The notes under the pieces: generated by a model
What the model was told of the DNA's origin: nothing
Seen by the model: the letters and a program-made list of their open reading frames with translations, nothing else
Databases searched by the model: none
Shown here: positions 7,950 through 64,000 of the stretch, one piece after another
Position numbering within the stretch: position 1 is the first letter of the stretch
Layout of the letters: each line of letters opens with the position of its first letter
Program-made: the position numbers and the translations under genes
Source of the DNA: Candidatus Shapirobacteria bacterium
Lineage (GTDB): Bacteria; Patescibacteriota; Microgenomatia; UBA12405
DNA length: 64,000 nt
Assembly: GCA_041659325.1 (NCBI GenBank)
Contig: JBAZYN010000002.1
Coordinates: 270,082-334,081, forward strand
Reading direction: 5' to 3'

Positions 7950-8807
7950 GTGAGAACTAAAAAAGGGAAGAGGGAAGATTTTAAAAAAGCCGTATCAGAC
8001 TGGGAAATATATGGGATACCGGTTTTTGGCGGAGGCGAGGTGGAAGTGCTAAAAAAAGCAGAACAATGGCTGTCGCGGGGTGAGAAGGGTAAGTGGATAG
8101 CGACGGTAAATCCGGAGTTTGTTATGAGGGCGATTGGGGATGATAATTTTATGGGATTGTTGGCTAAAACAGATATGAATGTGGTCGATGGAATTGGGCT
8201 GATTTGGGCAAAAAAGGTGAAAGCCATGCCTGCCGGCAGGCAAGTCTCAAAGTCAAAAAGTCTAAAAGTCTTAAAGAAGATATTTTACGGGGTGAAGGTT
8301 GGGGGGGAGATATTGAGGGGGAAATATAGAGATGAGCTGGCCGCGGGGGCGGATTTGATGATAAAGATGGCTTGTCTGAAAGTCCAAAAGTCTGAAAGTC
8401 TGAAAGTCTTTTTCTTGGGTGGGTGGGGGGATAGGGCGGAGAGGACGGCTAAACAATTATCAATTACGAATTACGAATTACGAATTGGTTGGTCCTCAGG
8501 AGGACCAAAAGTGAAGAATGAAGAAGTAATAAGACAAATTAATAAGTTTAAACCTGATCTTCTGTTTGTGGCTTATGGGATGCAGAAACAGGAAGAGTGG
8601 ATTTATAAAAATATAAAGGATCTGGATGTGGGGGTGGCAATGGGGGTGGGGAGAAGCTTTGACTATTACAGCGGGGACTTAAAACGGGCGCCCGGGTGGG
8701 TTAGAAGGATGGGGATGGAGTGGCTGTATTCTCTAATTGTTGAGCCCAAAAGGTGGAAGAGGCAGCTTGTTTTGCCTCAATTTGTTTGGAAAGTGATTAT
8801 CAATTAA
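7950..8807 (+). CDS. WecB/TagA/CpsF family glycosyltransferase
   Basis: VNPEFVMRAI...VVDGIGLIWA resembles the TagA family. Three in-frame microrepeat insertions are present (SKSKSLKVLKK, LKVQKSESLKVF, SITNYELRIG). Confidence 0.65.
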   Translation: MRTKKGKREDFKKAVSDWEIYGIPVFGGGEVEVLKKAEQWLSRGEKGKWIATVNPEFVMRAIGDDNFMGLLAKTDMNVVDGIGLIWAKKVKAMPAGRQVSKSKSLKVLKKIFYGVKVGGEILRGKYRDELAAGADLMIKMACLKVQKSESLKVFFLGGWGDRAERTAKQLSITNYELRIGWSSGGPKVKNEEVIRQINKFKPDLLFVAYGMQKQEEWIYKNIKDLDVGVAMGVGRSFDYYSGDLKRAPGWVRRMGMEWLYSLIVEPKRWKRQLVLPQFVWKVIIN

Positions 8808-9306
8808 TTTAATAAATGAGAGACAGAGAAGATCCGGTAAAAGCAACATTTAGATTGCAACGGGTTGTTTCGATAGATACGGGAAGGACTGTTTTTATGG
8901 TTATATATCGCGCCGATAAGGTTGGTGGAGGTGTTGGTATAAATAATCTCGTGAGTTTGAGGAAAGATTTGGTAGGAAAACAGGGGGTGACAAGTGAGAT
9001 TTTTGTCTTGCCCCCTGAAGTGCAAGTCAGAAAACAGGCACGTAAAGACGGTCGGTGGAGTGGTAGAGAGAAGGAAATAAATTAATTGTAAGCGGTTTGT
9101 TTTTGGTGTTATAATCGGGAAATATGATACAACAAGAAAGAAGAACACAAAAACCTGCTATCGGCGGAAGATTGGGTTTTTTGAGAAAGCCAGGAGATGA
9201 TAGGGGTGTATTGAGTCCGGATCCGGTCATTGAAGAGAAAAAGAAACCACAGTCTGGTGGTGGGAGTATACCGGGACAACCGGTGGTTTCTGATACACAG
9301 CCACCA

Positions 9307-10458
9307 CTAAATCCCTAGTAATTTTACTTCCGTTTCAAGTTTAAAATGGAATTTTTGTTTGCAGGTGGACTGGATTAGGCGGACAAGACTCAGATAGTCT
9401 TTGGCGGTGGCATGCCCGGTATTGACAATAAAATTAGCGTGGAGAGGAGAGGTTTGGGCGCCACCAATGGCGTGGCCTTTGAGCCCGAGCTCATGGTCGA
9501 TAATCCAACCGGCTGATTTTTGCTCGCCCCAGATCTTTTGGCAAATTGCCAGGGGAGGATTGGCAAAGGCGGAGCCGGCAGAATTCATGGGCTGAACTTT
9601 GACCTTTTGGCTAATCCAGGCTTGGACGACCTTTTTGGCCAAATTGGTATCGCCTTTAAAAAGACGGAGAGTAGCCGAAAGGATTATTAGGTGAGGATTT
9701 TGTTGGAAAAATGATTTTTCATACTGCCATTTTAGATTTGATTTTTTAAAGGTTTTTATTTTACCGGTTTTTAGGTTAAAAGTATTTACTGAGTGAATAT
9801 AGTCGGCGAAGTGATAAGAGCCGCCGTGAATGTTGTACCAGACAGCCCCGCCGATGGTCCCGGGGATATAGGCAAACCATTGGAGGCCGGTCAATCCATG
9901 TTCAATCAGATTGTTGATAGCAAGGGGGAGGGGGGTACCCGAGGAGAGACGAACCAGGCGGGAGGGGAGGTGGGATTCATCGTAGTTTACTTTTGAAAAA
10001 TCCAGATATTTTTCCGGTTCATTTTCCATTCTTTGAGTATAGGTAGGGGAAAAAGTAGCCGGAGCGCAAGATTTTAGAATTTTGATATCCTGAGAGGAAT
10101 TTTTGACAACCAGACCGCGGATGCCGGTGTCGGAAATTAAAACATTGGAGCCATTGCCGAGGATGGTTATATGGCTTGTCAATGAATTTTTGCAGTGCTC
10201 GCTACCTTCGGGCTCATCCGCTTCGGCGGATTCGCGTTCGCTGTGCGCTGAAAAACTATTGACTGCGCCAAATTGGTCCAAGTTATGATATACAAGTTTA
10301 AGTATTGATATAAAGTGTTCCTGGGTTTTGGAGTTGATAAAGATATCGGCGGGGCCGCCGATTTTGAGGGTGGTGTAGGGGGCGAGGGGGTGATTTTGAT
10401 AAATTTCTAAGTCGGGAAAGTGTTTTTTTAGATCAAAATAAATTTTGGAGTAATCCAT
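9307..10458 (-). CDS. murB: UDP-N-acetylenolpyruvoylglucosamine reductase MurB
   Basis: FAD-binding motifs YTTLKIGGPAD and LGNGSNVL. Carries an in-frame insertion derived from an intergenic repeat element (…SAHSERESAEADEPEG…). Confidence 0.8.
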   Translation of the reverse strand: MDYSKIYFDLKKHFPDLEIYQNHPLAPYTTLKIGGPADIFINSKTQEHFISILKLVYHNLDQFGAVNSFSAHSERESAEADEPEGSEHCKNSLTSHITILGNGSNVLISDTGIRGLVVKNSSQDIKILKSCAPATFSPTYTQRMENEPEKYLDFSKVNYDESHLPSRLVRLSSGTPLPLAINNLIEHGLTGLQWFAYIPGTIGGAVWYNIHGGSYHFADYIHSVNTFNLKTGKIKTFKKSNLKWQYEKSFFQQNPHLIILSATLRLFKGDTNLAKKVVQAWISQKVKVQPMNSAGSAFANPPLAICQKIWGEQKSAGWIIDHELGLKGHAIGGAQTSPLHANFIVNTGHATAKDYLSLVRLIQSTCKQKFHFKLETEVKLLGI

Positions 10459-10471
10459 TGGTGAATTATAC

Positions 10472-10504
10472 AGTTACGAATTACGAATTACGAATTACGA
10501 ATTT
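10472..10504. repeat. AATTACGA octamer tandem array
   Basis: cagttacgaattacgaattacgaattacgaattt. Similar arrays sit at ~8461, 19914, 38048, 58856 and 60304. Confidence 0.8.
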
Positions 10505-13613: not shown

Positions 13614-13871
13614 TTATTCGGTTTGTATTCCCAATAGCCAGAGTACGGCTTCTTTGCGGTAGCGGCGATCGCCACGGGCGTTTATTCTTATGGCCGGAAG
13701 TTTGCCGCGTTTTCCCCAGCGTTTGATGGTTAGTTTGCTAACCCGGAGTAAGTCGGCAACTTCGGCGACTGTGAGAAGGTCGGGAAGATTGTCGATGCTG
13801 ACACCGTTGATCTTTTTCGGGGCGGGGTTTTGTTTCACAAGTTTCTCTTGTGATGTGGTTTGTTCATCCAT
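13614..13871 (-). CDS. Excisionase/AlpA-family helix-turn-helix DNA-binding protein
   Basis: LLTVAEVADLLRVSKLTIKRW…KLPAIRI matches the Xis-type HTH consensus. No integrase is nearby. Confidence 0.55.
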   Translation of the reverse strand: MDEQTTSQEKLVKQNPAPKKINGVSIDNLPDLLTVAEVADLLRVSKLTIKRWGKRGKLPAIRINARGDRRYRKEAVLWLLGIQTE

Positions 13872-13948
13872 ATGGTGGCTCCTCTTGCATCAAAATAATC
13901 AATAACTGATAACAGTAAAACATATTGGATATTTGTGTGTCAAGAAGT

Positions 13949-13988
13949 TGGTAATCGGTAACTGGTAATTGGTAATTGGTAATCAGTA
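13949..13988. repeat. GGTAATTG-type octamer tandem array
   Basis: ggtaatcggtaactggtaattggtaattggtaatcagtaag. Similar arrays sit at ~7606, 51227 and 59525, with a CTGTAAAC variant at ~46582. Confidence 0.75.
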
Positions 13989-14100
13989 AGAATAGGTGAA
14001 AAGGAAATTGGAGAGTCTAAAAGTCGAAAGTCTTAAAGTCCAAAAGTCTCAAGGTCTGAAAGGAGAAAGCCGGAAAGGGGAAATTTTGGTATTATTGTTT

Positions 14101-15117
14101 ATGACTGAAGATAAACAGTACAAAATTGCGTTTTTTGGGGTAAAGAGTTGGGAGAAGGAGGTTATCGAAAAACAGATTATAAAGTTGGATACCTTTGGGG
14201 TGGGAATATTTAGAGGGGAGGTTCAGGATAATATAGATCTGGCAGCAAAGTATGATATTTTGTCTCTGTCAGTGAATTCAAAGCTGACGGGAGAAGTGTT
14301 GGCGAAATTGCCTAAGCTAAAACTGGTGACGACGAGATCCACCGGGAAAGATCACATTGATGGCAGGGAGTGTTTGGAAAGAAAAATTGCGGTGGTAAAT
14401 GTGCCAACGTACGGGTCCGGGACAGTGGCGGAGTATGCGATGGGGTTGTTGCTGGCGGTAACCAAAAGAATTGTAGTGGCGCATCAGTCGGTGGAAGAGG
14501 GAACCTTTAATACCGAGGGGTTGACGGGAGTGGATTTGACGGGAAAGACCATAGGGGTGATAGGTGTCGGATCTATAGGGCAAAATGTGATACACATCGC
14601 CAGGGGCTTTAGAATGAAGGTCTTGGGGGTGGACCGCAAGCGTGATCCCAAATTAGCAAAAAGGATGGGGTTTAGGTACGTCGATTTGGAAAGTTGTCTG
14701 AAACAGGCTGATTTTGTAACCATTCATGTGCCGTTTGTGCCGGAGACTTTTCACATGATTAATAAGAAAAACATTAAGCTTTTAAAAACAGGGAGCTTTT
14801 TGATAAACGTTTCAAGGGGGCCGGTGGTAGAGATTGAGTCGCTAGTGTGGGCTTTGAACAACAAAATATTGGCCGGGGTGGGATTGGATGTAACCGAGGA
14901 AGAGCGTTTGGTCGATAAGGTATCAACAGTGATGGGGGACAAGATAAGCAAGGATGATCTGAAGGAAATTGTCAGCTTTCATTTGTTGAGGGACAGAGAC
15001 GATGTGGTGTTTACCCCGCATAATGCGTTTAACACCAAAGAAGCAATCGAGCGGATTGTGACGGCGACGGTGGAGAGTATAGGAAACTATATAAAGTCTG
15101 AGAGTCGAAAGTCTTAA
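14101..15117 (+). CDS. D-isomer-specific 2-hydroxyacid dehydrogenase (NAD-binding)
   Basis: GKTIGVIGVGSIGQ Rossmann motif and family-wide similarity. The ORF-track start (13996) begins inside an AAGTCTNA repeat array; internal Met at 14101 is preferred. The C-terminal tail is also repeat-derived. Confidence 0.75.
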   Translation: MTEDKQYKIAFFGVKSWEKEVIEKQIIKLDTFGVGIFRGEVQDNIDLAAKYDILSLSVNSKLTGEVLAKLPKLKLVTTRSTGKDHIDGRECLERKIAVVNVPTYGSGTVAEYAMGLLLAVTKRIVVAHQSVEEGTFNTEGLTGVDLTGKTIGVIGVGSIGQNVIHIARGFRMKVLGVDRKRDPKLAKRMGFRYVDLESCLKQADFVTIHVPFVPETFHMINKKNIKLLKTGSFLINVSRGPVVEIESLVWALNNKILAGVGLDVTEEERLVDKVSTVMGDKISKDDLKEIVSFHLLRDRDDVVFTPHNAFNTKEAIERIVTATVESIGNYIKSESRKS

Positions 15118-15183
15118 AGTCTGAAAGTAAAAATATTTAAATTATTTTAAAGTCGAAAGTCTTAAAGTCTGAAAGTCTGAAGC
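15094..15183. repeat. AAGTCTNA octamer tandem arrays (two blocks) upstream of the four-helix-bundle gene
   Basis: agtctgagagtcgaaagtcttaaagtctgaaag … agtcgaaagtcttaaagtctgaaagtctgaag. Confidence 0.8.
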
Positions 15184-15187
15184 AAAA

Positions 15188-15553
15188 ATGAAAATAGAAA
15201 GATTTGAAGACAGTTTGGTTTGGAAAAAATCGAGAGATTTGACATTGGGAATATATAAAAACCTGAAAGATTGTCGGGATTTTTCTTTTAGAGATCAAAT
15301 TTGTCGAGCATCAGTGTCAATTATGAATAATATCGCCGAAGGTTTTGAAAAAGGAACAGACAAAGATCTAGCTAAATTCTTATTTATTGCTAAAGGTTCT
15401 TCGGGGGAAACAAGGTCAATGTTATACTTGGCAAGAGATTTGAAATATTTGGATGACAATAGATTTAAATTGCTGTATCAAAGTTCGATAGAAATATCAA
15501 AAATGTTGTGGGGTTTTATTAAAAGTTTAAAAATAAAGGAAACAAGTCTTTAA
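15188..15553 (+). CDS. Four-helix-bundle protein (23S rRNA intervening-sequence protein family)
   Basis: SIMNNIAEGF…KGSSGETRSML is the signature of the IVS four-helix-bundle family. The gene is flanked by inverted AAGTCTNA arrays. Confidence 0.7.
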   Translation: MKIERFEDSLVWKKSRDLTLGIYKNLKDCRDFSFRDQICRASVSIMNNIAEGFEKGTDKDLAKFLFIAKGSSGETRSMLYLARDLKYLDDNRFKLLYQSSIEISKMLWGFIKSLKIKETSL

Positions 15554-15589
15554 GACTTTTAGACTTTGAGACTTTTAGACTTTAAGACT
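15547..15589. repeat. Inverted AAGTCTNA array (TNAGACTT orientation) downstream of the four-helix-bundle gene
   Basis: ctttaagacttttagactttgagacttttagactttaagact. Confidence 0.8.
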
Positions 15590-15594
15590 AAATT

Positions 15595-16659
15595 ATGAAG
15601 CCAGTAATAATTTGTGGTGGAGTTGGTTCTAAAATGTGGCCGGAGAGCCGGCAAAAAAGCCCGAAACATTTTTTAAAGCTGATCGGGGAAAAGTCGTTGT
15701 TCCAACTTAATTATGAAACTTTGAGGAAGAAGTTTGAGCCGGAAGAGATATTTTTGCAAACAAATGCTCAACAGGCAATAATAGCCAAAGAACAGGAACC
15801 GGAGATACCCGAAGATAATATTTTTATAGAACCGGAGATGAGAAACCACGGCCCAGCCACCGGTTTGGCGGCGGCGATGTTGTTTAAACGGGGATTTCAA
15901 GATGAGCCATTTATGTTGGTGCAGGCTGATGTGTTACGGGAACCGGAAGAGAAATTTTTTGAGATGATCGATCAGTGTGATCGGCTGGTAAGAAAAGAAG
16001 GAAAGTTGGTGACCGGCGGATACAGGCCGCCTTATGCAATGATGGGAGTGGATTATTTGATAAGGGGAGAGAGAGTGCCTGATACCGGAGAGGTGGTGAT
16101 TTGGCGGATGGAAAAATGGCTAGGAAGGGATGCAAAAGAAAGCGTGGAGGGATTTTTGAAGGACGGGAGGGCACTTTTGCACAGCAACCATTATTGTTGG
16201 ACGCCGAGGTCGTGGATGGAGTCGTTTAAAAAACATACCGAAGTTGACTGGTATCAACCGCTGCAAAATATAATAAACGGATCAGCGGTGGCAGAAGAAT
16301 ATCCGAAAATGATGAAAGGACCGATTGAGCTTGTAACAAATACAGAGCTTTTAGAAGGCCAGGTAGTAGAACATGATTTTAAATGGATTGATTTTGGAAC
16401 ATGGGAGTCGGTGGCAGTGTATCTTAATAGTCGAAAGTCTGAAAGTCTGAAAGTCGAAAGTAGGGATATGCAAGAAATTGAGGCAAAAAATAATTTTGTC
16501 CGCAAGCCGGCGGGGAAATATGTGGCTATGATTGGGGTGGAGGATTTGGTGGTAATAGACACAGCAGACGCGCTTTTGATTATGAAGAGAGACAAAAGCG
16601 GGATGGTGGGGCAGGTGGTGGATAAATTAAAGGCTGATAACCGAATCGAGTTACTTTAG
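15595..16659 (+). CDS. manC: Mannose-1-phosphate guanylyltransferase (GDP-mannose pyrophosphorylase)
   Basis: IICGGVGSKMWP nucleotidyltransferase motif and family-wide similarity. In-frame microrepeat insertion NSRKSESLKVESR. Confidence 0.7.
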   Translation: MKPVIICGGVGSKMWPESRQKSPKHFLKLIGEKSLFQLNYETLRKKFEPEEIFLQTNAQQAIIAKEQEPEIPEDNIFIEPEMRNHGPATGLAAAMLFKRGFQDEPFMLVQADVLREPEEKFFEMIDQCDRLVRKEGKLVTGGYRPPYAMMGVDYLIRGERVPDTGEVVIWRMEKWLGRDAKESVEGFLKDGRALLHSNHYCWTPRSWMESFKKHTEVDWYQPLQNIINGSAVAEEYPKMMKGPIELVTNTELLEGQVVEHDFKWIDFGTWESVAVYLNSRKSESLKVESRDMQEIEAKNNFVRKPAGKYVAMIGVEDLVVIDTADALLIMKRDKSGMVGQVVDKLKADNRIELL

Positions 16660-19506: not shown

Positions 19507-19655
19507 AGTTTTTAAATAATAATGGCCTCGAAGGTCGAGGCGCAAAAAATATAAAAACTATATTTTGCCTCGGTGGGATTTATTTTTGTACCCACTGTCT
19601 TCGGTTTAGTAGAGTATTGTATCACATAATAATAGGGCCGTGATAGGATGAAATA

Positions 19656-20720
19656 GTGAAGAAAATATTGGGCGGGGCGTTGATATTTTTGGGTTTGTCG
19701 GGATTGGCATTGATGGGGTGGAGGGTATGGAGAGGAGAGGGTTTCATAAATCCATTGGTGGGGGAAAGCGATAGGGTGGCTTTGCCTTTGGAGAGGTATG
19801 ATTTTGATAGTTTAAGAAATAGTCTTAAAGTCTTAAAGTCTGAAAATCTAAAAATCGAAAGTCGAAAGTTTGAAATATTGGGAAATATACCTGAAGTAGA
19901 GAGCCGGAGGAAATTAATTACGAATGATCAATTACGAATTACGAATTTTGAAACCAAGAAGTTTAGATTTATGAGTGAGGGGAAGTGGATAACGGGAATG
20001 ATCAATATACCTATGACGCCGGATAGCAGGAAAAAGAGGGCGATTATAATGGTGCGGGGGTATGCAGACAAGCCGGGATACTATACAGGCTTTGGAACGT
20101 GGAAAGCGGCCGATGAGTTTGCAAAACAGGGGTGGGTAACAGTGAGCTTGGATTTTTTAGGTTTTGGAGGAAGTGACGAGGAGAGCCTGGAAATGCTTCA
20201 AGCCAGGTTTGAAAAGGTGGTGGCGGTATTGGATTTGATTGAGACAGTCAAACAATTAGGGTATGTAGACACAAATAATATCGGGATTTGGTCGCATTCA
20301 AACGGGGGGCAAATTGTGTTATCGGTTTTGGAAATCACGGGGGGTAATTATCCAACGGTTATGTGGGCGCCAATGACCAATCCGTTTCCGCAAAGTGTGT
20401 TGGATACGGCGTCGGATTTGGATGACGGAGGAAAAGCGGTGATAAAAGCGGTGGCGGAGTTCCAAAAGCAGTACGATAGTCGAAGGTATGCGTTTGAAAA
20501 TTATTATAAGTGGATTAATGCGCCGGTGTTGATTCAACAGGGGACAGCAGATGAATGGTGTGAGGTGGCGTGGCAAGAGAAAGTAGTCAATGCCTTAAGG
20601 GCAGAGGGGAAAAAGGCGGAATTAGTGATTTACAAAGGTGATGATCATAATTTGAAAAAGAATTGGGATGAGGCGGTAGAGAGGGATGTAGAATTTTTTA
20701 ATACGGAGTTTTTAAACTGA
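19656..20720 (+). CDS. Secreted/membrane-anchored alpha/beta hydrolase (S9/dienelactone-hydrolase-like esterase)
   Basis: N-terminal signal/transmembrane segment. Nucleophile elbow WSHSNGG. In-frame AAGTCTNA and AATTACGA repeat insertions (NSLKVLKSENLKIESRKFE…ITNDQLRITNFE). Confidence 0.6.
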   Translation: MKKILGGALIFLGLSGLALMGWRVWRGEGFINPLVGESDRVALPLERYDFDSLRNSLKVLKSENLKIESRKFEILGNIPEVESRRKLITNDQLRITNFETKKFRFMSEGKWITGMINIPMTPDSRKKRAIIMVRGYADKPGYYTGFGTWKAADEFAKQGWVTVSLDFLGFGGSDEESLEMLQARFEKVVAVLDLIETVKQLGYVDTNNIGIWSHSNGGQIVLSVLEITGGNYPTVMWAPMTNPFPQSVLDTASDLDDGGKAVIKAVAEFQKQYDSRRYAFENYYKWINAPVLIQQGTADEWCEVAWQEKVVNALRAEGKKAELVIYKGDDHNLKKNWDEAVERDVEFFNTEFLN

Positions 20721-38044: not shown

Positions 38045-38081
38045 ATATAATTACGAATTATCAATTACGAATTACGAATTA

Positions 38082-38240
38082 AAATCAAAATCTCCCCCTG
38101 CCCCCTCTTTGAGGAAAGAGGGGAAAATATAACGTCAAACGTCATTGCGAAGGAAGGAATGACTGCGGCAATCTTAACAAGATTGCTTTGTCGTTTGGAA
38201 TCCTCCCTCCATGGGCGGGTAGGCGCAATGACGTGAAGTA
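38082..38240. repeat. Composite GC-rich hairpin repeat element (intergenic)
   Basis: cccctctttgaggaaagagggg hairpin plus …caagattgc… and …gcgcaatgacg… modules. These are shared with elements at ~18402-18465, 18922-18992, 60318-60440 and 11872-11958, and with the in-frame copy in murB (~10205-10262). Confidence 0.6.
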
Positions 38241-40700: not shown

Positions 40701-40749
40701 ACACTTTAGACGCGAGTTTGGTATAATCACTATTACTTTATATATCAAT

Positions 40750-45929: not shown

Positions 45930-46601
45930 TTATTCGTTTTTCTTGAGCCATTTTTCTCTTTTGAGAAAAAGAAAGCCAAGCATTAAACCGGCGCCGATAA
46001 CGGTTAAGAGAGATTCGATTTTATCAAGCCCGTGGGCCAGACCAATAAACGCTTCTCCCATCTCAAAGCCGATGAATCCCAGGATGGTGGCTCTGATGAG
46101 CAAGGCCACAAAAACCATGGGATAAAATTTGGAGGGAGGGATTTTGAAACCGCCGCAAAAGGCGGTAATTAACGAAACGGGGACAATCGGGATGGAGCAG
46201 GCGACAAGGATAAAGAGCTCGTCGGCGATTGTTTTTTGAAAATCGGCTTTGATTTTTTCGATTAACTTCCAGCTGACACCGATATATTTGCCAAATTTAT
46301 CAATGAGGGGTTTGCCGCCATAGAAGGCAATAAAATAAACCAAACTGGTGCCAAGGGTAGCGCCAATAGTGTAGGGAAGAGTGACTTTGTTGAAGATTTG
46401 CCAGATGGCTTCAAAAATCGGTAGGTTTCTGTCGACGATTAAAGCGCCGCCGGCCATGGTGATAATGGGAGAAGGAATGGGGACGATGATTTGTTCGATA
46501 AAACCTCCGCCAAACATGGCCAGGAGGGCGTTGGTTTTGATGAGGTCAAGAATTGAGTTGAGGATGTGGGTCATGGGAAGATTGTAAACTGTAAACGGCA
46601 A
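45930..46601 (-). CDS. DedA/SNARE-associated family membrane protein
   Basis: GGGFIEQIIVPIPSPIITMAGGAL matches the DedA motif. Confidence 0.65.
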   Translation of the reverse strand: MPFTVYNLPMTHILNSILDLIKTNALLAMFGGGFIEQIIVPIPSPIITMAGGALIVDRNLPIFEAIWQIFNKVTLPYTIGATLGTSLVYFIAFYGGKPLIDKFGKYIGVSWKLIEKIKADFQKTIADELFILVACSIPIVPVSLITAFCGGFKIPPSKFYPMVFVALLIRATILGFIGFEMGEAFIGLAHGLDKIESLLTVIGAGLMLGFLFLKREKWLKKNE

Positions 46602-46644
46602 ACTGTAAACTGCAATTGAGACGGTATTCGGTTAAAATGGACAG

Positions 46645-49883: not shown

Positions 49884-51131
49884 ATGGATAACCATAGTCA
49901 AAAGTCTAAAAGTCGAAAGTATAAAGTCGAACAAGATAGTATTTTTAGTTTGATTAAGAAAGAGGAGGAAAGGCAGAGGAATACTATTGCCCTGATTCCC
50001 AGTGAGAATTTTGCCAGCGAGGGGGTGAGGGAGGCTTTGGGAAGTGTATTGACTAATAAATATGCTGAGGGGTATCCCGGCAGACGGTATTATCAGGGAA
50101 ATAGTATTGTTGATGAAATCGAGAATTTGGCGATTGAAAGAGGCAAGAAGTTATTGGGAGTGGAACATCTGAACGTCCAGCCGTATTCGGGCAGTCCGGC
50201 AAATTCGGCGGTGCAGATGGCACTACTGGAGCGAGGGGATAAAATTTGTGGCCTGAAATTATCAGCTGGAGGGCATTTAACTCACGGACATCCAAAAATT
50301 ACCTTTTCGGGTAAATTTTTTGAAAGTGTGCAATATGATGTGGAGGCGGATGGACGGATTGACTATGACAAACTATCTTTAATAGTAGATCAAACCAGGC
50401 CAAAAATGATCATGGCGGGGACAACCGCTTATCCATTTATTTTGGACTGGGAAAGATTTGGGCAAATCGCCGATAGGGTGGGGGCATGGCTGGTGGCCGA
50501 TATTTCTCATATTGTTGGGCTAGTGGTTGGCGGAGTCCACCCGAGCCCGGTGCCTTTTGTACATGTCCTGACTAGTACGACGCACAAAAGTTTGAGGGGG
50601 CCAAGAGGAGCGTTTATCGGAGTGACTAAAAAAGGGCTAGAAAAAGACGGGGAACTGGCAAAGAGAATTGACAAAGCGGTGTTTCCGGGATTGCAGGGCG
50701 GGCCGCACGAAAATCAGATTGCGGCAATGGCAGTGGCTTTCGGAGAGGCGGGCACTGTGGAATTTAGGGAATATGCTAGTCAGGTTGTAAAAAATGCAGG
50801 GGCATTGTCTCAAAGTCTAAAGTCTAAAAGTCTGAAAGTCTATGGAACAGAGAACCATTTGATGGTGGTGAAGATCGGGTTGGGGAAAGGAAAAGAGACA
50901 GCAGAAATGCTTGAAGAGGCGGGGATTATCTGCAATGCCAATACGGTGCCACATGATGAGGCCGGGCCAATGAAGCCGTCGGGAATTAGGCTGGGGACAC
51001 CGGCGATGACGACAAGAGGATTTAAAGAGACGGATTTTGAGAAAGTATCTGAGTGGATTTTTCGGGTAATAGGGGGCGAAGACAGACAGAAAATAAAAGG
51101 GGAAATAGTTGAGTATTTGAAGAGGTTTTGA
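49884..51131 (+). CDS. glyA: Serine hydroxymethyltransferase
   Basis: LIPSENFAS…, PLP-Lys region TTTHKSLRGPRG. N-terminus and one internal loop carry AAGTCTNA-repeat-derived residues (SQKSKSRKYKVEQ; KSKSLKV). Confidence 0.9.
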   Translation: MDNHSQKSKSRKYKVEQDSIFSLIKKEEERQRNTIALIPSENFASEGVREALGSVLTNKYAEGYPGRRYYQGNSIVDEIENLAIERGKKLLGVEHLNVQPYSGSPANSAVQMALLERGDKICGLKLSAGGHLTHGHPKITFSGKFFESVQYDVEADGRIDYDKLSLIVDQTRPKMIMAGTTAYPFILDWERFGQIADRVGAWLVADISHIVGLVVGGVHPSPVPFVHVLTSTTHKSLRGPRGAFIGVTKKGLEKDGELAKRIDKAVFPGLQGGPHENQIAAMAVAFGEAGTVEFREYASQVVKNAGALSQSLKSKSLKVYGTENHLMVVKIGLGKGKETAEMLEEAGIICNANTVPHDEAGPMKPSGIRLGTPAMTTRGFKETDFEKVSEWIFRVIGGEDRQKIKGEIVEYLKRF

Positions 51132-51134: not shown

Positions 51135-53864
51135 TCAGAAATTTCTCTTAATTAACCTGAGGATGGGGATAAGAAATAATCCAAAACCAAGGAATTGGAG
51201 GAGTTGAGGCCAGAAGAAAACATAAATGGTAACTGGTAATCTGTAATCGGTAACCTGTAATTGCCAGCCGTTGGCCCAGTTGTTGATTAAAAGATGGGGA
51301 AGAAAAATAGGATAGGGCAAACACACCGGTTTGCCCGTACATTTAAAATAAAAGGCAAGCCAACCGGGGTGAAAGGATTGGGCAAGAAAAAGAGTGGAGT
51401 CAGAACGTGGTTTGTCCAAAGAAATTTTGTAAAAGGATTGATTCGGGTGGTGAACTTTGGGGATGGAAACAGTTGGTCGGCTGATGACGGAAGGATTGGA
51501 CGTGGGGGTAATCAAATAATTCCAGGGAACAACAGATATTTGAGCGGATTCGACTTGGTTGACACTGGCAGTATCGGAGAGGGAGAGGCTTCGAAAGTTG
51601 ATGCCGATTCCGTTATCAAACTCATAGATGGGAGGGAGGAAGAAGTAGTTGACGGATAAATTCGGATTGATTTTGCTATCGATATAGATTTTGTTGTCTT
51701 GGGATGAAAAGACGGTAATATTGAATGGCCGCCCCGAGATATTGGTGGTTTTTATTTTGAGAAGGTAAGCATTTTTGGTTTCGAGATTGCCACAGGAATA
51801 ATATTCGGACGTTTCAGTGTTTACAGCGGTAACAACCGAAGTAAAGCCGGTGCAGTCGAGCCACTGAGGGGTAAATTGGACAGAGTAAGGGGGATTGTTT
51901 AAATAGACGGTGTTTTGATCTTCGGTAAACCGGAAAGGATAATTTTCCGGTCGGCCGGTGAAGAGGGAGCCAAAGGGAAATTGGGCTTGAAAGGGTTTTG
52001 AATAATCGGTTTTATATGGTCCAAAGGATTGGAAACCCGGATCAAAATTGGAAAAACGCTCCGGGTTTTGGATATTGGACAGGTTTTTGAAGATGCCGAC
52101 ATTTTGAGGAAGGAGCTGACTTTGATTAACTTTGTAAAGGTTGATATCGCCAAAGCTTTTTTTGAGAGAAATGAGTTTTGAATTTTCGATTAGTTCTTTG
52201 TTTTCCCGGAGAACACGACCGGTGTTGGCGGCATCAGGGAAGGAAATAGTGTCGTCAAAAATAATGTAGGAAATGTTGTATTTGAGGAGAATGTTGTCAA
52301 AAAGATTTGAATCTCTGGTAATGAGAGCATGATGCAGTTGCCAGTAATAATTTTCCGATTCACTGCTCCAGACGTCAAAAGCCCGGTCAAGGATCGGCTG
52401 ATCGATACCGTACCAAAGGAAGCCAGAGCCGGTAAGGCCCCATTTGTAATTTTCCCAACCCCAATAATTGTATTGAGGGAGATTTATTATACGTTTGGAT
52501 GGTTCGATGTCTTTGAAATATTGAAACAATTCCAGATAAGAGGGTGGGATTTTGGCTCTCATCCGGGGGTGAATAAAGTTGCCTTTAAATGACGGCCAGG
52601 AGACGGCGATCAGAAGGGGGAAAATAAGTAGGGTAGTGGTATGGCCAATTTGCCTAAACCGGTGAATTAAAAAATTAATTGCCAGTCCGAAAGACACGGA
52701 AAGCGAAAGGACAGCGGGGGTGATGAGCTTGGTAAAGGAGTTTCTAAAAATCTGGTTGAGAGCCGGGATTGATCTGAAAAAAAGATTAACTTGCTTGAAA
52801 ATAGGGGTGTCAGATAAAAGCCCCACACAGGAAAAGAGGAGGATCCCTAGAAATATTTTTTTGTATTTATTTTTTGAGAAAAGACCAAGGAGTGAAGTAA
52901 AGGTAAGAATTATTGAAGCCAGTCTGATGATAAAAGAGGAAAAATGAGTATGCCAGACTTCGAGGAGAGGTTTGGGGACTCCGGAAAGGTAATCTTTTAT
53001 ATCGTAGTATTGGCCCTGGAGAAGCAAAAAGTCAGTTATATGGCCGCGGTGTTGGTTTTGTTCGATGAATTGATCAGTAACCTTTAGATTCATCATGGCA
53101 TTTTGGGTAACAGAGATATTGGTAAGGGTGAAAAAAATGTTTGGCAGCAGCCAAAAGGAGTTTAGAAAAAATATGGTCAGGGCAATAGAACTGTAGATCT
53201 TTAGAGCCTTAAAACGATGGTGAGATGGAGTGGAGAGAAAATGAAATAGAAAGACTAGAGAGAGGCTGATGAAATAGACCAGGAAGATGGTCTGAACGTA
53301 GGACATGGGAATGGATAGAATGTTGACAGCGATAAAAATGAACCAATGGCGGCGAGAGGGATGATCCAGGACTATCAAAAGGGACAACAAGAGCCAGGGA
53401 AGCATGCCCCAAAAGGTAGTGTATGGCTCAAAGGGTAAATTGAGATATTGAACCGATCCGAAGTTGAGAAGGTAGAAAAGGGAACTCAAAAGGGACGGGA
53501 GGGATGATTTTTGGGGCTTGAGAATAAAGGCTGTTAGATAAAAGGTGCCGAAAGATCCGGCGATGATCATGCTGAAGTGAAAAAGATAACGGAGAAGATG
53601 GGTGGGAATTATGGGAGAAAGGATTAAAAGGATTAGTTGCCGGGGGAGATCAGCGGCATGAGCCATGCCGGCTAATAGTCCTAGACCCTGGTATTCCTGC
53701 CAGACGGAAAAAACGGAGCGTTTGATGTTGGCGGGGAGGTTGAGTTCGGGGTGAAGATTGTCCCAACCACTAAGCCAGGTATCGGGCGAAAAATTGGCCG
53801 CTAAAAGAGGAAACAGAATCAGGCACAAGAGGAGCTGAGCCCAATATTTTTTAACCAGGGACAT
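51135..53864 (-). CDS. Large polytopic membrane protein, putative GT-C-fold glycosyltransferase (YfhO-like)
   Basis: 909 aa. More than 10 N-terminal transmembrane helices, then a ~450-aa extracytoplasmic domain. Sits in a cluster with GT4 and GT2 genes. Confidence 0.45.
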   Translation of the reverse strand: MSLVKKYWAQLLLCLILFPLLAANFSPDTWLSGWDNLHPELNLPANIKRSVFSVWQEYQGLGLLAGMAHAADLPRQLILLILSPIIPTHLLRYLFHFSMIIAGSFGTFYLTAFILKPQKSSLPSLLSSLFYLLNFGSVQYLNLPFEPYTTFWGMLPWLLLSLLIVLDHPSRRHWFIFIAVNILSIPMSYVQTIFLVYFISLSLVFLFHFLSTPSHHRFKALKIYSSIALTIFFLNSFWLLPNIFFTLTNISVTQNAMMNLKVTDQFIEQNQHRGHITDFLLLQGQYYDIKDYLSGVPKPLLEVWHTHFSSFIIRLASIILTFTSLLGLFSKNKYKKIFLGILLFSCVGLLSDTPIFKQVNLFFRSIPALNQIFRNSFTKLITPAVLSLSVSFGLAINFLIHRFRQIGHTTTLLIFPLLIAVSWPSFKGNFIHPRMRAKIPPSYLELFQYFKDIEPSKRIINLPQYNYWGWENYKWGLTGSGFLWYGIDQPILDRAFDVWSSESENYYWQLHHALITRDSNLFDNILLKYNISYIIFDDTISFPDAANTGRVLRENKELIENSKLISLKKSFGDINLYKVNQSQLLPQNVGIFKNLSNIQNPERFSNFDPGFQSFGPYKTDYSKPFQAQFPFGSLFTGRPENYPFRFTEDQNTVYLNNPPYSVQFTPQWLDCTGFTSVVTAVNTETSEYYSCGNLETKNAYLLKIKTTNISGRPFNITVFSSQDNKIYIDSKINPNLSVNYFFLPPIYEFDNGIGINFRSLSLSDTASVNQVESAQISVVPWNYLITPTSNPSVISRPTVSIPKVHHPNQSFYKISLDKPRSDSTLFLAQSFHPGWLAFYFKCTGKPVCLPYPIFLPHLLINNWANGWQLQVTDYRLPVTIYVFFWPQLLQFLGFGLFLIPILRLIKRNF

Positions 53865-57853: not shown

Positions 57854-57989
57854 GGGGGTAGGGTAGAGGAGCGTTTCGTTCCGATTTTAGTCGGAACTCA
57901 TCAGGTCCATCAATAGGACGACGCTAACCTAATTTCTTCTTCTCTCTCTTTCTCTTTTTTTTCTTTCTTTTTTCTTTTTTTCTTTCCTG

Positions 57990-58812: not shown

Positions 58813-59211
58813 TAAGATGTATTCACTACACTAGTGATACCGTGCTGGATACAAATCAATTACGAATTACGAATTATTAATTACGAATTACAAAAGCCAC
58901 GAAGGTTGATTTTGATTTGATATCCAAAACGGTATCACCAGAGTGATGCCCAAGGAGAACAAAAAAGATTTTGAGAGATATGAAGAAATTAGGTTTTTAA
59001 AGAACAAATTGGCGAAATCTTGATCTACGCTTTGTAGATGTTGATAACTGCCAAAGGAGAATTGGGGGGTACAAAGTCGGGTTGCCCCGTCATACTCCCC
59101 ATCTCTCCTTTAACAATTATTGTCTATTTTTAAATGTGCTTCAAATAAACTGCGTCTACGGCCTATATTATAACCTATAACTAATTTTATGTCAAGTTAT
59201 AGGTTAGTAGG

Positions 59212-59463
59212 TTATTTCCAGGTTGAGGCATAACCTTTGTCGGCCATACAGACAGCGTAGATTTGTTTTTGTGGAGCGATGCTTTTGATATTTTTTTCGA
59301 TGTCATTGAATTCATAGGTTCCTGAGCTTTTCAGACATTCGGAGACGGCATCATTTTTTAGCTGTTGTGCCTTGAGGGTGACAAAGGAAGTAAAGAACAG
59401 ATATAAACCGGCAAAGACAAGAACGGTTTTTAATATAGAAGATAATATTGTTTCTAATTTCAT
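59212..59463 (-). CDS. Small secreted/membrane hypothetical protein
   Basis: 83 aa with an N-terminal signal peptide-like segment. Confidence 0.3.
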   Translation of the reverse strand: MKLETILSSILKTVLVFAGLYLFFTSFVTLKAQQLKNDAVSECLKSSGTYEFNDIEKNIKSIAPQKQIYAVCMADKGYASTWK

Positions 59464-59580
59464 GACCTATATTGTAATACGAGAATCCTATAATATCAAG
59501 GGGGGAAGTAAAAGATACATTTTTGTAATCAGTAATTGGTAATCAGTAACCTGTAATTTGTAAAAAGGTTATAGGGATAT

Positions 59581-59610
59581 AAAAACTCCCCGCATGAAGC
59601 GGGGAGTTTC
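59581..59610 (-). terminator. Intrinsic terminator downstream of the LPXTG protein gene
   Basis: aaaaaCTCCCCGCatgaaGCGGGGAGttt: hairpin followed by a U-tract on the minus strand. Confidence 0.55.
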
Positions 59611-60230: not shown

Positions 60231-60446
60231 ATGTTTATTAAAATGATTAATAAATTATAATATGGGTTATTATATATCCAAAAAATGTGGTGTCAAATGA
60301 TAAATCAATTACGAATTAAATCAAAATCCACCCCTAACCCCTCCTTTGAGTAAAGGAGGGGGCACTAGTTTTAAAGTCTCCCTTGTCAAAGGGAGAGGCG
60401 GCGAAGCCGAGAGGGATTTTGATTGGGACAAGATTGCCGCGTTACT

Positions 60447-61328: not shown

Positions 61329-61343
61329 AGTGGGGGTAAAGTT

Positions 61344-62225: not shown

Positions 62226-62353
62226 GTTTTTTTGGAATAAATTAATATGGGAGCAGAAACAAAGGGATGCTTTTTGTGGACTACCTGAGCATACCATAAA
62301 AATTTTTGATAAAACTACAAGAGTATTGTGGGTAGAAATGCTATATTTAATAA

Positions 62354-63268
62354 GTGGCGTTTAAAAATGCTTTTGTCTTGTTATTGGGTTTTATTGTAGT
62401 ATCGGTATTGGTTGATTGGTACATCATAAATTTCCCGGCCGACAGGGTAGATAAATTTTTTTCGGAGCTGCCGGGGCTGATTGAGGATGGTTTTTTGAAT
62501 ACAGTGGCCGATGATACGGTAATCGAGATGAAGGCGGGCAAACTTAGGATTAATAGGGAAAATCCGTATTGCCTGATTATTAATAATAAAACCAGAGACG
62601 GGATTGTTTTTGATTCGGAAGCATTGAGGGAAGTGATTGCTTCGGGAGGTGGCGGGAAATATGATGAATTGTGTCACCCGGTGGTATTTGCCGGGAAAAA
62701 CTATATATCGTATCTTGGCCAGGACGGGGAATATGTTTTGGAACAGCCCTCCGAGATGCTAAATTTTAGTTTGTCAAAGAATAAGCTTGGGAGCATGATT
62801 TCTACCTATTTGCCCCAGATAATTGCCGGAGGGAAGACGGTTTACTTGGTACTTCCGTGGGTGATGATTCCCGGATATGTGATATTTTTGATGTTAAAGG
62901 TTTATTGGTATGTTTTTGTGGTTAGAATGGCACTTAAGGTTTACAAGGTGAGAGGAAATTTTAATTCAAAGGAGCTTTATCCGATGGTGATGTTTGTGGC
63001 GGCGGTGTGGTATTGGGTGAAGTGGTTAATAATTCAGGTGGTGATGAATTATGTGGGGGGGCAGAGAATCAACACAAATATTTTGTTTTTTAATACGATT
63101 TTGATTACGGTGGGATCGATATTTTTTGTGCAAAATTTTAGCTTGGGGAGAGGAGAGACTATAATTTCTATGCCCGATAAGGAAAAGCGGAAGACCGGGG
63201 AATCCGGGGGCGAAGTCAGAGTAGAAAGAAAATTAAGGCAGGCAGTTAAGGAGATACCTTTGGAGTAG
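62354..63268 (+). CDS. Hypothetical polytopic membrane protein
   Basis: 304 aa with multiple hydrophobic helices. Confidence 0.4.
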   Translation: MAFKNAFVLLLGFIVVSVLVDWYIINFPADRVDKFFSELPGLIEDGFLNTVADDTVIEMKAGKLRINRENPYCLIINNKTRDGIVFDSEALREVIASGGGGKYDELCHPVVFAGKNYISYLGQDGEYVLEQPSEMLNFSLSKNKLGSMISTYLPQIIAGGKTVYLVLPWVMIPGYVIFLMLKVYWYVFVVRMALKVYKVRGNFNSKELYPMVMFVAAVWYWVKWLIIQVVMNYVGGQRINTNILFFNTILITVGSIFFVQNFSLGRGETIISMPDKEKRKTGESGGEVRVERKLRQAVKEIPLE

Positions 63269-63277
63269 AATGGGAAT

Positions 63278-64000
63278 ATGCCAAAGAAATTAGGAGTAGT
63301 GTTGGCCGTAATGGTTGTTTTTGTAATGGGCGGTGTTTTGGGGTATTTTTATAACCAGAGGATAGTCTCAAAGTCTGAAAGTCTTGGAGTCTCAAAGCCT
63401 GAAAGTGATAAATATGTTTTGTTTGTGGACGAAGTGTTTGCGGTGATAAAGGAAAACTATTGGAACGTACTGACTGAGGAGCAACTGGCGAAAGTGTTTG
63501 CCCTGGCCACCGAAAAAATTACCAGTCAGCCGGTGGGAGGAAAGATCGAGAGCCGGGCGGCGGTGACGAAAGTGACCCAAGAGGTGTTGAAGAACTACGA
63601 TACCGAAGACAAAAAGAAACAGTTTTGCGGAACCTTGGCGGATATGGTGTTGTCGAACCTGGAACCATTTGGAAGGAGCCGACTATATACAATCAAGGAG
63701 GAGAAGGCGCTGAGCGACAATGTAAACAACAAAAATCCGGCAGTTGATAGATACGAGGAATTAGGGGTAGGTAAGGAGGCAAGCGAGGCGGCGATAGCGG
63801 AGGCGTTTAAAAAGAAACCGGAGGCCCAAAAGGCCTATGAGGTTTTGTCTGATCCGGAGGCAAAAAAAGTATACGATGTATCGGGGGCGGAGCCGACAAT
63901 TGAATATAAGCTGTTGAGCCCCAAGGTGTTTTATATGCACATTACCAAGTTTTCGCCGTTAACTTTTGATGAATTAAAACGAGTGACGGAGAAGGCTGAC
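63278..64000 (+). CDS. Hypothetical membrane-anchored protein, 3'-partial (runs off the window end)
   Basis: ATG at 63278, no stop before 64000. N-terminal transmembrane segment, AAGTCTNA-derived SKSESLGVSKPES, and a J-domain-like stretch that lacks the HPD motif. Confidence 0.45.
   Translation, partial: MPKKLGVVLAVMVVFVMGGVLGYFYNQRIVSKSESLGVSKPESDKYVLFVDEVFAVIKENYWNVLTEEQLAKVFALATEKITSQPVGGKIESRAAVTKVTQEVLKNYDTEDKKKQFCGTLADMVLSNLEPFGRSRLYTIKEEKALSDNVNNKNPAVDRYEELGVGKEASEAAIAEAFKKKPEAQKAYEVLSDPEAKKVYDVSGAEPTIEYKLLSPKVFYMHITKFSPLTFDELKRVTEKAD

Follow-up and report, generated by a model that had tools for sequence, protein, structure and literature searches.

Known dispersed repeats and the Shapirobacteria arrays

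The heptamers of cyanobacteria known as short tandemly repeated repetitive (STRR) sequences form a class of dispersed tandem repeats related to the elements treated here. These elements lie in a stretch of 64,000 nucleotides (nt) from a Candidatus Shapirobacteria bacterium of the Candidate Phyla Radiation (CPR; contig JBAZYN010000002.1, forward-strand positions 270,082 to 334,081), which is referred to as the window, and consist of short arrays of tandem 7- or 8-nt units placed between genes and inside housekeeping genes. The arrays belong to a known, mechanistically unsettled class of bacterial heptamer-type dispersed repeats and are not a new kind of system. The reading preferred here, with a probability of about one half, is that they are mini-repeats of the STRR or long simple sequence repeat (LSSR) type that spread through ectopic copying of short patches and were then filtered by selection.

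Heptanucleotides are the commonest class of long simple sequence repeats (SSRs) in bacteria, and a slippage origin has been proposed for them, as summarized in a later paper (Mrazek et al. 2007, via PMC4679880). As far as that summary describes the LSSR/STRR class, whose units measure 5-11 nt, the arrays resemble it in having a direct tandem unit of 7 or 8 nt, in the recurrence of one unit at numerous scattered loci, chiefly gene boundaries, and in a sporadic phylogenetic distribution. Tandem excess and dispersed recurrence are both found, as is an intergenic preference over 785 kb of Shapirobacteria loci, with 12 of the 23 arrays of the window being coding. The variable copy number expected from slippage is not: the arrays have a mode at four units and are identical between assemblies. 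Further differences are the CPR host, the presence of octamers alongside heptamers, and the translation of half of the arrays within core genes.

The TAACTGA repeats of marine Beggiatoaceae, cyanobacteria, and Bacteroidetes occur in sets of 2-6 copies (MacGregor 2015, PMC4679880). Like the arrays of the window, they abut start codons that lack a Shine-Dalgarno (SD) motif, overlap upstream stop codons, occasionally enter the peripheries of open reading frames (ORFs) in the stop-free orientation, and are found in unrelated phyla; the BOGUAY sets, however, are mostly of 2-3 copies, with monotonic sizes, and about 85% of them are intergenic (PMC4679880). The arrays described here are built from other units, show a four-unit mode, do not favor any type of intergenic region, and are coding in about half of the cases.

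Other dispersed repeats share single traits with the arrays. The small dispersed repeats (SDRs) of Nostoc and Anabaena, reportedly described by Elhai and colleagues in 2008 (cited in PMC3116915), are said to be non-coding elements of 20-40 nt, nested in one another, for which an unknown copy mechanism was inferred. SDRs are not internally tandem-periodic; in the present case the arrays act as hosts, and the SDR-like guest is a palindrome nested in them, TGCCTGCCGGCAGGCA. The Rickettsia palindromic elements, to which a first-pass annotation likened the arrays, are selfish palindromes of about 100-150 bp that reside in frame in housekeeping genes, at permissive loops. In-frame residence at permissive sites is also seen here (in manC, the esterase gene, the N-terminus of serine hydroxymethyltransferase (SHMT), TagA, and NrdJ). 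In contrast to these elements and to the repetitive extragenic palindromes (REPs) mobilized by REP-associated tyrosine transposases (RAYTs), the arrays are non-palindromic, 32-38 nt long, tandem-periodic, and not associated with a RAYT. Likeness to REP/REPIN-RAYT systems (PMC3116915) is limited to a genuine REP that resides in frame in the TagA of a sister genome; the arrays themselves show neither the hairpin palindrome nor copies flanking a RAYT.

Tandem boxes of similar size also serve as protein-binding sites, as in the case of MetJ, which binds tandem 8-bp boxes. The ribbon-helix-helix (RHH) protein omega/ParB of pSM19035 requires at least four contiguous 7-bp heptads, in any orientation (PMC9499535). 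Most arrays here are likewise made of four contiguous units plus a partial one, with the octamers mixing 7- and 8-nt spacing. The heptad and parS arrays are promoter or centromere sites of a plasmid with a cognate protein, whereas here there is about one array per 3 kb, and many are genic. The uptake sequences of Pasteurellaceae and Neisseriaceae are abundant oriented motifs that enter genes by substitution and encode characteristic peptides (PMC2817400), but they consist of a single motif, one per species, and not of tandem arrays of two to three families. Contingency SSR loci lie in dispensable surface, antigen, or restriction-modification genes, and the hosts here are SHMT, NrdJ, ManC, TagA, 2-hydroxyacid dehydrogenase (2-HADH), and a hydrolase. 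Finally, the genic repeats of Borgs, as far as they are described in the source consulted, have units in multiples of 3 and create disordered regions (PMC9879509), in contrast to the 7- and 8-nt units of the window.

Array families and abundance in the window

The window holds 23 array sites, of which 12 belong to the AAAGTCTN family, 6 to the AATTACG family, and 5 to GGTAATY-type families. Tandem Repeats Finder (TRF) returned 21 non-overlapping arrays of period 7 or 8 (at least 2.8 copies, overlaps merged), compared with 0.43 on average (at most 3) in 100 dinucleotide-preserving shuffles of the window, and no arrays at all with periods 4-6 or 9-11. The arrays are a real and abundant feature, and the enrichment over chance on which the first-pass annotation depended holds within the 64 kb. 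Every coordinate listed in that annotation carries the motif assigned to it, both by TRF and in the raw sequence, and its description of non-palindromic families dispersed between genes and within housekeeping genes is borne out. The count of at least 25 recurrences has to be lowered to the 23 sites, one of which (at 60304) is a remnant of 1.5 units. The 8-nt period that it gave to all families applies to AAAGTCTN alone, whereas AATTACG, GGTAATY, and TGTAAAC arrays have period 7.

Even in AAAGTCTN, the sole octamer family, the spacing is mixed: of 47 distances between cores, 35 are of 8 nt and 12 of 7 nt, the latter produced every time by the variant AGTCGAA. GGTAATY nearly equals CGTAATT, the reverse complement of AATTACG, and is also scored as such. 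Single arrays are non-palindromic and without stable self-structure (predicted folds of -1 to -7 kcal/mol); five of six folded arrays fall within 1.5 standard deviations of their own shuffles, and the GGTAATY array at 13945-13992 reaches z = -2.0. AAAGTCT heptamers standing alone, outside arrays, are not enriched on either strand (7 on the plus strand vs 5 on the minus strand). The sites, with the palindrome nested in one of them, are the following, where O, A, and B denote the AAAGTCTN, AATTACG, and GGTAATY-type arrays.

7606..7641, minus strand: B1, heptamer array reading GGTAATT/GGTAAAC on the plus strand (AATTACC-type on the minus strand), intergenic, 25 nt past the mreB stop
8226..8241, no strand: 16-nt perfect palindrome TGCCTGCCGGCAGGCA, nested at the left edge of O1 and translated within AMPAGRQ of TagA
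8242..8277, plus strand: O1, AAAGTCTN array, located in the hypervariable TagA loop and encoding VSKSKSLKVLK
8374..8409, plus strand: O2, AAAGTCTN array in TagA, CLKVQKSESLKVFF, +2 codons vs the ortholog consensus
8455..8486, plus strand: A1, 32-nt AATTACG array in TagA, QLSITNYELRI, length unchanged vs orthologs
10472..10503, plus strand: A2, 32-nt AATTACG array 13 nt 5' of the murB start (minus strand), adjoining a TATAAT box in a divergent intergenic region
13948..13989, minus strand: B2, GGTAATY heptamer array between an HTH_17 gene (13614-13871, minus strand) and the 2-HADH gene
14012..14062, plus strand: O3, AAAGTCTN array 39 nt 5' of the conserved 2-HADH start (14101), non-coding, although it falls in a mechanically called ORF that begins at 13996
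15093..15130, plus strand: O4, AAAGTCTN array forming the final 8 codons and the stop of 2-HADH (IKSESRKS*)
15148..15181, plus strand: O5, AAAGTCTN array ending 6 nt 5' of the start of a 23S-rRNA-IVP family gene
15544..15590, minus strand: O6, the only inverted AAAGTCTN array of the window, spanning the IVP stop and ending 4 nt 5' of the manC start
16429..16461, plus strand: O7, AAAGTCTN array in the inter-domain linker of manC, NSRKSESLKVES, +4 codons vs the sister contig L083
19821..19875, plus strand: O8, AAAGTCTN array in the linker of an S9/alpha-beta hydrolase, between transmembrane (TM) anchor and hydrolase domain, +9 codons vs the closest orthologs
19916..19947, plus strand: A3, 32-nt AATTACG array in the same hydrolase linker, LITNDQLRITNF, +3 codons
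37435..37480, plus strand: O9, AAAGTCTN array within NrdJ, in the linker that joins the ribonucleotide reductase barrel to the TSCPD domain, identical in Logan contig L002
38049..38081, plus strand: A4, 33-nt AATTACG array beginning 5 nt past the nrdJ stop, with the exact master order
46583..46615, minus strand: B5, TGTAAAC/GGCAAAC heptamer array between a divergent VTT-domain gene and thyA
49896..49931, plus strand: O10, AAAGTCTN array at SHMT residues 5-16, a lineage-specific N-terminal extension
50806..50842, plus strand: O11, AAAGTCTN array inside SHMT, SQSLKSKSLKVY, of the same length as the ancestral AESLKSKGLKVF
51234..51263, minus strand: B3, heptamer array reading QLQVTDYRLPVT in sense, near the C-terminus of a 909-residue minus-strand ORF and directly preceding its hydrophobic tail
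58858..58891, plus strand: A5, 34-nt AATTACG array, intergenic
59524..59563, minus strand: B4, heptamer array with a terminator-like hairpin (59583-59610) on one side and, on the other, the promoter-like region of a small ORF on the minus strand
60307..60318, plus strand: A6, 1.5-unit AATTACG remnant followed by AAATCAAAATC and a C-rich hairpin, as after A4
63364..63406, plus strand: O12, AAAGTCTN array that follows the N-terminal TM helix in the partial ORF at 63278, VSKSESLGVSKPES

The arrays are also present in independent assemblies. The SHMT of the window (49884-51131) is 100% identical to a Candidatus Shapirobacteria protein from a metagenome-assembled genome (MAG), encoded on a 335-kb contig, and the annotated lengths of TagA, the hydrolase, and SHMT at NCBI and JGI equal those of the ORFs used here. 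The protein clusters hold only GTG/ATG start variants from one MAG, and manC as called here had no match in the gene-position index. Two Logan contigs of SRR18595301 match the window over 13,949 bp at 99.99% and over 6,353 bp at 100%, with zero gaps, and the six arrays that they contain are reproduced exactly; one of the two, L001, stops within the AATTACG array A5. Since these contigs match the window without gaps and related arrays occur in contigs of other samples (ENA ERZ27250602 and ERZ27250635, Logan SRR12762322), an assembly artefact, which the first-pass annotation had considered, is excluded.

Fixed size and shared unit order

A typical array measures 32-38 nt and consists of five 4-nt cores, either AATT every 7 nt or AGTC every 8 nt (sometimes 7), within an overall range of 30-55 nt for the individual arrays of the window. 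The canonical forms are (AATTACG)4AATT and (AAAGTCTN)4-5, the octamer "master" having five AGTC cores. Lengths in the 785 kb of Shapirobacteria loci are distributed bimodally: below about 20 nt there is a background at chance level, few arrays measure 21-29 nt, and heptamers then peak at 30-35 nt and octamers at 33-38 nt. Of 18 AATTACG-type arrays taken from the window and four related loci (five sources in all), 11 have a length of 30-34 nt.

Besides their size, arrays at unrelated positions share the order of their variant units. The 32-nt order AATTACG-AATTATC-AATTACG-AATTACG-AATT is exact at 38049 and recurs with 1-2 substitutions at 19916 (one substitution) and at positions 1202 and 1263 of the sister contig L083. 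Similarly, the 35-nt order AGTCTAAAAGTCGAAAGTCTTAAAGTCTGAAAGTC is exact at position 9115 of L083 and is found with 2-3 substitutions at 14014 (two) and 15095 of the window and at position 1347 of contig L206, downstream of SHMT. These master orders thus sit at non-orthologous loci in three genomes. In addition, tagA of the window and the region upstream of 2-HADH in L083 share 25 identical bases, TGAAAGCCATGCCTGCCGGCAGGCA, which cover an array unit and the left junction with the nested palindrome, and beyond which the array resumes in both. The palindrome TGCCTGCCGGCAGGCA is nested in these two octamer arrays and in a GGTAACT array of contig L008, that is, within a 7/8-nt array in three cases. 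Because unit order and nested junction recur at non-orthologous loci, whole arrays, guests included, appear to have been copied or converted between loci; slippage in situ would not explain the shared order and guests.

The same palindrome is a small dispersed element of several Shapirobacteria, found in the window and near positions 8064 of L083, 7219 of L008, 4594 of L025, and 124 of L037.

Occupied sites in a sister genome

The 11.6-kb ENA contig L083 is collinear with the window from about 6.6 to 17.7 kb and carries the same repeat families, with protein identities of 49-94% for 10 of the 11 genes compared, a range that leaves out the 2-HADH pair. Of the 11 array sites in this stretch, eight are filled in both genomes, sometimes by different units. 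The site upstream of murB holds AATTACG x4.3 in the window and TWTAGTA x5.3 in L083, and the one upstream of 2-HADH holds GGTAATY and AAAGTCTN octamers, respectively, with the same total length and the same flanks. Within TagA, the A1 site contains AATTACG in the window and AATTTMA x4.4 in L083. The loop occupied by the octamer array O2 is filled in L083 (tagA, 1975-2010) by a RAYT-associated REP, GGGAACGGTTTGAAACCGTTCCGTACAAA, inserted in frame. The mreB-tagA spacer has heptamers in both genomes, with the AATTACG arrays of L083 oppositely oriented.

O1 is common to the window and L083/P0122, with 91% nucleotide identity compared with 70% for the whole of tagA. Around the IVP gene, differences of +48 nt and +9 nt between species reflect the gain or loss of units. 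In the linker of the esterase (the S9-type hydrolase), P0246 and P0247 carry other repeats.

Arrays within coding sequences

Pfam, PDB, and ortholog alignments place 12 of the 23 arrays in translated sequence, always in linkers, loops, or termini: three in TagA, two each in the hydrolase and SHMT, and one each in the 2-HADH C-terminus, ManC, NrdJ, the 909-residue ORF, and the partial ORF at 63278. The first-pass annotation had stated that about one array in two is translated in frame at such positions, in the same orientation as the host gene, and that array make-up preserves the frame, all of which was confirmed. Its placement of arrays at both termini of 2-HADH is right for the C-terminus (O4) and wrong for the N-terminus, where O3 lies 5' of the start at 14101 indicated by PDB relatives and by the gene call of the sister genome. 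The heptamers stand in sense orientation in genes because the opposite strand (CGTAATT/GGTAATT) has TAA in every frame. In octamer arrays, 11 of 12 of which are sense relative to the local genes, frames are kept open by mixed 7/8-nt units, by the choice of the variable base, and by variants such as GTCCAA replacing GTCTAA. Interspecies length differences of coding arrays are multiples of 3. The resulting peptides, K-S-x-S-L-K-V and I-T-N-Y-E-L-R, are probably passengers and not functional modules.

Some of these arrays are lineage-specific insertions, as had been suggested for all of them. This holds for O7 in manC (+12 nt vs L083), for the two hydrolase arrays (+27 and +9 nt vs orthologs at 77-78% identity), for O2 in TagA, and for O10 at the SHMT N-terminus, an extension of about 16 codons common to three relatives; O10 is also present in contigs L204 and L206, the window copy being 9 nt shorter than that of L204. 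A comparable case is the AATTACG array of L083 ruvC (+5 codons, +15 nt). Simple insertion does not account for the TagA heptamer array A1 and the internal SHMT array O11, which replace ancestral residues without gaps. O11 has the same length in 45 SHMT orthologs, and array-free orthologs already match 20-25 of its 33 core positions (61-76% of the pattern), a likeness that stems from S-L-K-S-K-G-L-K-V, which in AT-rich codons is similar to the repeat. Relative to these orthologs the window shows substitutions alone, four synonymous ones completing the AAAGTCT pattern. The alignment indicates that O11 arose purely by substitutions in pre-existing look-alike sequence, the count of changes toward consensus having descriptive value only.

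In a related contig, L205, sequence is 100% identical to L204 over about 900 nt and then diverges shortly 5' of the internal SHMT array, which it has in common with the window, before ending in unrelated sequence. Two readings fit L205, a recombinant allele and a chimeric contig.

Distribution across genomes

TRF analysis of 80 SHMT loci showed that arrays with 7/8-nt units, in about 4-5 copies, are common throughout Shapirobacteria, and some other Patescibacteria loci have them too. The units are mostly species-specific, with AATTACG common to L008 and L025. Intergenic regions account for 12% of the 785 kb and have about half of the 105 arrays in them or adjoining them; array density between genes is about 5-6 times that in ORFs. 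The number of arrays in tandem, divergent, and convergent intergenic regions is proportional to the length of these regions, and a role as promoter or terminator was rejected on this account.

Outside this group the two main families behave differently. More than 120 metagenome contigs, with GC contents of 27-71%, carry arrays of AAAGTCTN, frequently paired in inverted orientation. In IMG/VR there are 9 stretches compared with 8 for a composition-matched control octamer, a background level that led to its rejection as a cross-phylum element; a more specific pattern of 15-mer order gave no match, and a Pfam scan of 107 ORFs flanking AAAGTCTN arrays in 80 metagenome loci revealed no enriched family. 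Since the IMG/VR count is no higher than background and no adjacent family is enriched, AAAGTCTN is considered specific to this Shapirobacteria subclade. AATTACG, on the other hand, forms 64 stretches in IMG/VR (24-67% GC), compared with 2, 3, and 6 for three composition-matched heptamers. The size mode of these arrays (loci L207-L270) is again four units, 32-33 nt, and 17% of them are inverted, hairpin-forming pairs with gaps of 7-41 nt, mostly 7-19. Some of the contigs hold 5-13 AATTACG copies, and one contig rich in arrays belongs to a B3-like transposable phage similar to phages of Leptolyngbya and Microcystis.

Proposed explanation and its rivals

In the preferred reading, each array would be a discrete mini-element of about 32-38 nt, with the whole array as the unit of spread. 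Spread and homogenization would proceed by short-patch, homology-assisted copying between arrays and array-like sequences, through ectopic gene conversion or template switching. Purifying selection would then remove copies in constrained positions, in a stop-generating orientation, or of frame-breaking length, a filter suggested by the positions of the arrays, their stop-free orientation, and net length changes in multiples of three. A compact and largely leaderless genome would offer few permissive sites, and the scarcity of such sites would explain why the same ones are colonized repeatedly by different repeats. A dedicated role for the arrays would not be needed to explain the pattern, and a role in protein binding may exist alongside.

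Several observations weigh against this explanation. Copying is deduced from sequence patterns, no event having been seen directly, and the sample comprises 64 kb and a handful of relatives. The count of changes toward consensus in the SHMT array is partly circular, because the array was recognized by its match to the consensus. Between its conserved flanks, the murB site differs by 1 nt in length between the window and L083, and the 2-HADH upstream arrays of the two genomes align without gaps; such retention of total length despite a swap of units is left unexplained by copying. The same is true of the sharp four-unit mode (five cores), which recurs in unrelated IMG/VR contigs. O5, upstream of the IVP gene, is identical to L083 at 34 of 34 positions while genes are 57-87% identical, and the excess of AATTACG in IMG/VR, 10-30 times over the controls, is likewise left unexplained by copying. 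The array size, the retained length, the identity of O5, and the AATTACG excess hint at constraint or at a trans-acting factor and less at drift.

The four-unit mode, the length kept when units are swapped, and the cross-phylum AATTACG excess keep alive a model in which the arrays are cis recognition sites for an oligomerizing DNA- or RNA-binding protein, the families being regulons or architectural sites. Cooperative subunits would bind the five even AATT or AGTC cores, as RHH-like proteins on DNA or ring-shaped proteins on RNA, for which the pSM19035 heptads offer a precedent. Besides the mode, shared by CPR and unrelated contigs, the model could account for the persistence of array positions between genomes (at the murB and 2-HADH sites), for O1 and the IVP-flanking arrays being more conserved than their surroundings, and for arrays that adjoin the -10 box of a leaderless gene (as with murB and with the small ORF at 59463). 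However, half of the arrays are intragenic, far from promoters, and no type of intergenic region is preferred; mixed 7/8-nt spacing would upset strictly periodic binding, each unit swap would require regulatory rewiring, and no candidate binder was found, Pfam scans of the window ORFs having returned no ribbon-helix-helix gene. This model is possible but doubtful, and its more specific form, a modular code of five even 4-nt cores read by an oligomeric nucleic-acid-binding protein and overprinted on essential CPR genes, seems rather unlikely. Less likely still is an action at the RNA level, with single arrays serving as unstructured A-rich spacers or translation enhancers beside the start codons of a genome that has hardly any SD motifs, and inverted pairs as stems for RNase III-type processing or transcript stabilization. 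Such a role, proposed for the Beggiatoaceae TAACTGA repeats (PMC4679880), fits the lack of structure in single arrays, those that end 4-6 nt before the IVP and manC starts, the stem around the IVP gene that is conserved in L083, the frequency of inverted pairs in other taxa, and the sense orientation of 11 of 12 octamer arrays. Stop codons already account for that bias within ORFs, though, and the window has a single inverted pair; many arrays lie in divergent regions or 5' of promoters, where they may be untranscribed, others deep in ORFs, and heptamer orientation flips between genomes at the mreB-tagA site.

The remaining explanations carry little weight. Molecular drive of the kind known for uptake sequences, where a competence system favors array-bearing DNA and recombination spreads it, would suit the internal SHMT array, where substitutions fell on poorly conserved residues in the manner of uptake sequences (PMC2817400), as well as the density of about 1 per 3 kb, the clade-specific "dialects" of related species, the lack of a link to gene function, and the seemingly recombinant divergence of L205 from L204 just 5' of the array. 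It is very unlikely given that known uptake sequences are single 9-12-mers, that two to three unrelated families share one genome, that many arrays are insertions and not substitutions, that AATTACG arrays occur in unrelated phyla, that the window has no competence genes, and that L205 may be chimeric. Independent growth of each array by replication slippage, with no copying between loci, is about as improbable. The tandem structure, the origin proposed for bacterial heptanucleotides in the summary cited above, and the units gained or lost near the IVP gene agree with it, but the same AAAGTCTN unit stands at 12 loci in 64 kb, lengths are bimodal and not monotonic, solitary AAAGTCT is not enriched, and the recurrence of unit order at non-orthologous loci largely refutes it. 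The first-pass annotation had also proposed slippage-prone phase variation, in which changes in unit number switch or resize essential enzymes. One-unit changes would indeed shift the frame, as units are not multiples of 3, and some hosts (TagA, ManC) are envelope-related; even so, this idea is highly improbable, because hosts such as SHMT and NrdJ are single-copy core genes of a reduced genome, units are degenerate, array size is fixed at about four units across loci and genomes, the six arrays compared between two assemblies of SRR18595301 show no length difference, and coding arrays differ between species in multiples of 3. The last proposal, that the arrays are footprints or cargo of the RAYT in the window, has a negligible probability. 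A Y1-transposase homolog is present (44355-44864, minus strand), and REPs do enter tagA in frame in L083; but the RAYTs of both genomes are each flanked by their own palindromic REPs, with which the non-palindromic, unstructured arrays have no sequence in common.

The RAYT and its REP elements

The RAYT-like ORF of the window is 29% identical to the Pfam-confirmed Y1_Tnp of L083 and itself scores below Pfam thresholds. It is flanked by inverted GC-rich REP hairpins, GGGCGATTCATGAATCGCCC (region 44317-44893), and not by arrays. The RAYT of L083 has GC-rich palindromic REPs of its own, GGGAACGGTTTAAAACCGTTCC, four of which precede it in tandem while one follows (2381-3060). Around the RAYT and an SPFH/Band7 gene of the window, segments of 70-90 nt are duplicated at 85-93% identity, which suggests local rearrangement or partial gene duplication:

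40619-40701: duplicated segment
43344-43549: duplicated segment
44238-44310: duplicated segment
44908-44980: duplicated segment
45195-45281: duplicated segment

The IVP gene and start sites

The gene of the 23S rRNA intervening-sequence protein (IVP) family (PF05635, 15188-15553) sits between 2-HADH and manC and is enclosed by inverted octamer arrays, which form a predicted stem of about 40 bp, with O4 pairing with O6 in the RNA fold. The stem is like those of rRNA intervening sequences. In a distant metagenome contig, L125, an IVP homolog lies about 40 nt from an octamer array. A general association between IVP genes and arrays was ruled out, the 107 flanking ORFs of the 80 metagenome loci showing no enriched family.

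Gene starts in the window look largely leaderless, with a TAnnnT box 4-12 nt 5' of the start in 35 of 54 genes, compared with 14% of control positions, and an SD-like motif in only 4 of 54. Arrays lie close upstream of the IVP, manC, and murB starts, distances to mechanically called ORFs being biased, and the IVP and manC starts have neither an SD motif nor a -10 box.

Other features of the window

The regions 38082-38240 and 60319-60440, 3' of two AATTACG arrays, have in common AAAATCAAAATC and a C-rich hairpin, CCCCTC(C)TTTGAG.AAAG(G)AGGGG, followed by repeats of the type "cattgcga/gcaatgacg", which constitute another repeat family. The sole Rfam match in the 64 kb is an L10 leader (19509-19622, minus strand) upstream of rplJ, and a known RNA family was accordingly rejected as the identity of the arrays. 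No tRNA genes are present in the window. GC skew on the plus strand is extreme and amounts to 0.14-0.43 in 2-kb bins from about 4 kb on, with G about twice as frequent as C regardless of gene orientation, and to 0.17-0.45 in about 45 Shapirobacteria SHMT loci (L003-L047). MurB (9307-10458) is 74 residues longer than its L083 counterpart and has an internal insertion of 53 residues. The L1 ORF at rplA (28936-29730) encodes 264 residues, of which the Pfam match spans 145-256 only. A polypyrimidine (TTTC-rich) intergenic tract of 54 nt occupies 57933-57986.

Significance

Although bacteria have been known for decades to carry dispersed repeats of the heptamer type, no mechanism or function has gained acceptance for them. 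If the modular recognition code did exist, it would represent a widespread, undescribed chromosome-organizing or post-transcriptional system, and the (AATTACG)4AATT module would span phyla from CPR bacteria to cyanobacteria-like phage contigs, over 24-67% GC. From a practical point of view, the arrays break assemblies, as in the Logan contig that ends in one, and inflate ORFs, as at the 2-HADH N-terminus, and the low-complexity peptides that they leave in annotated CPR proteins should not be taken as functional motifs. The window adds to this class an example from the CPR, for which the literature searched held no description and no mention of these repeat units. It also shows that whole arrays, and not single units, are the unit of spread, that they have a fixed five-core architecture recurring in unrelated genomes, and that such repeats overwrite or extend essential enzymes of a minimal genome.

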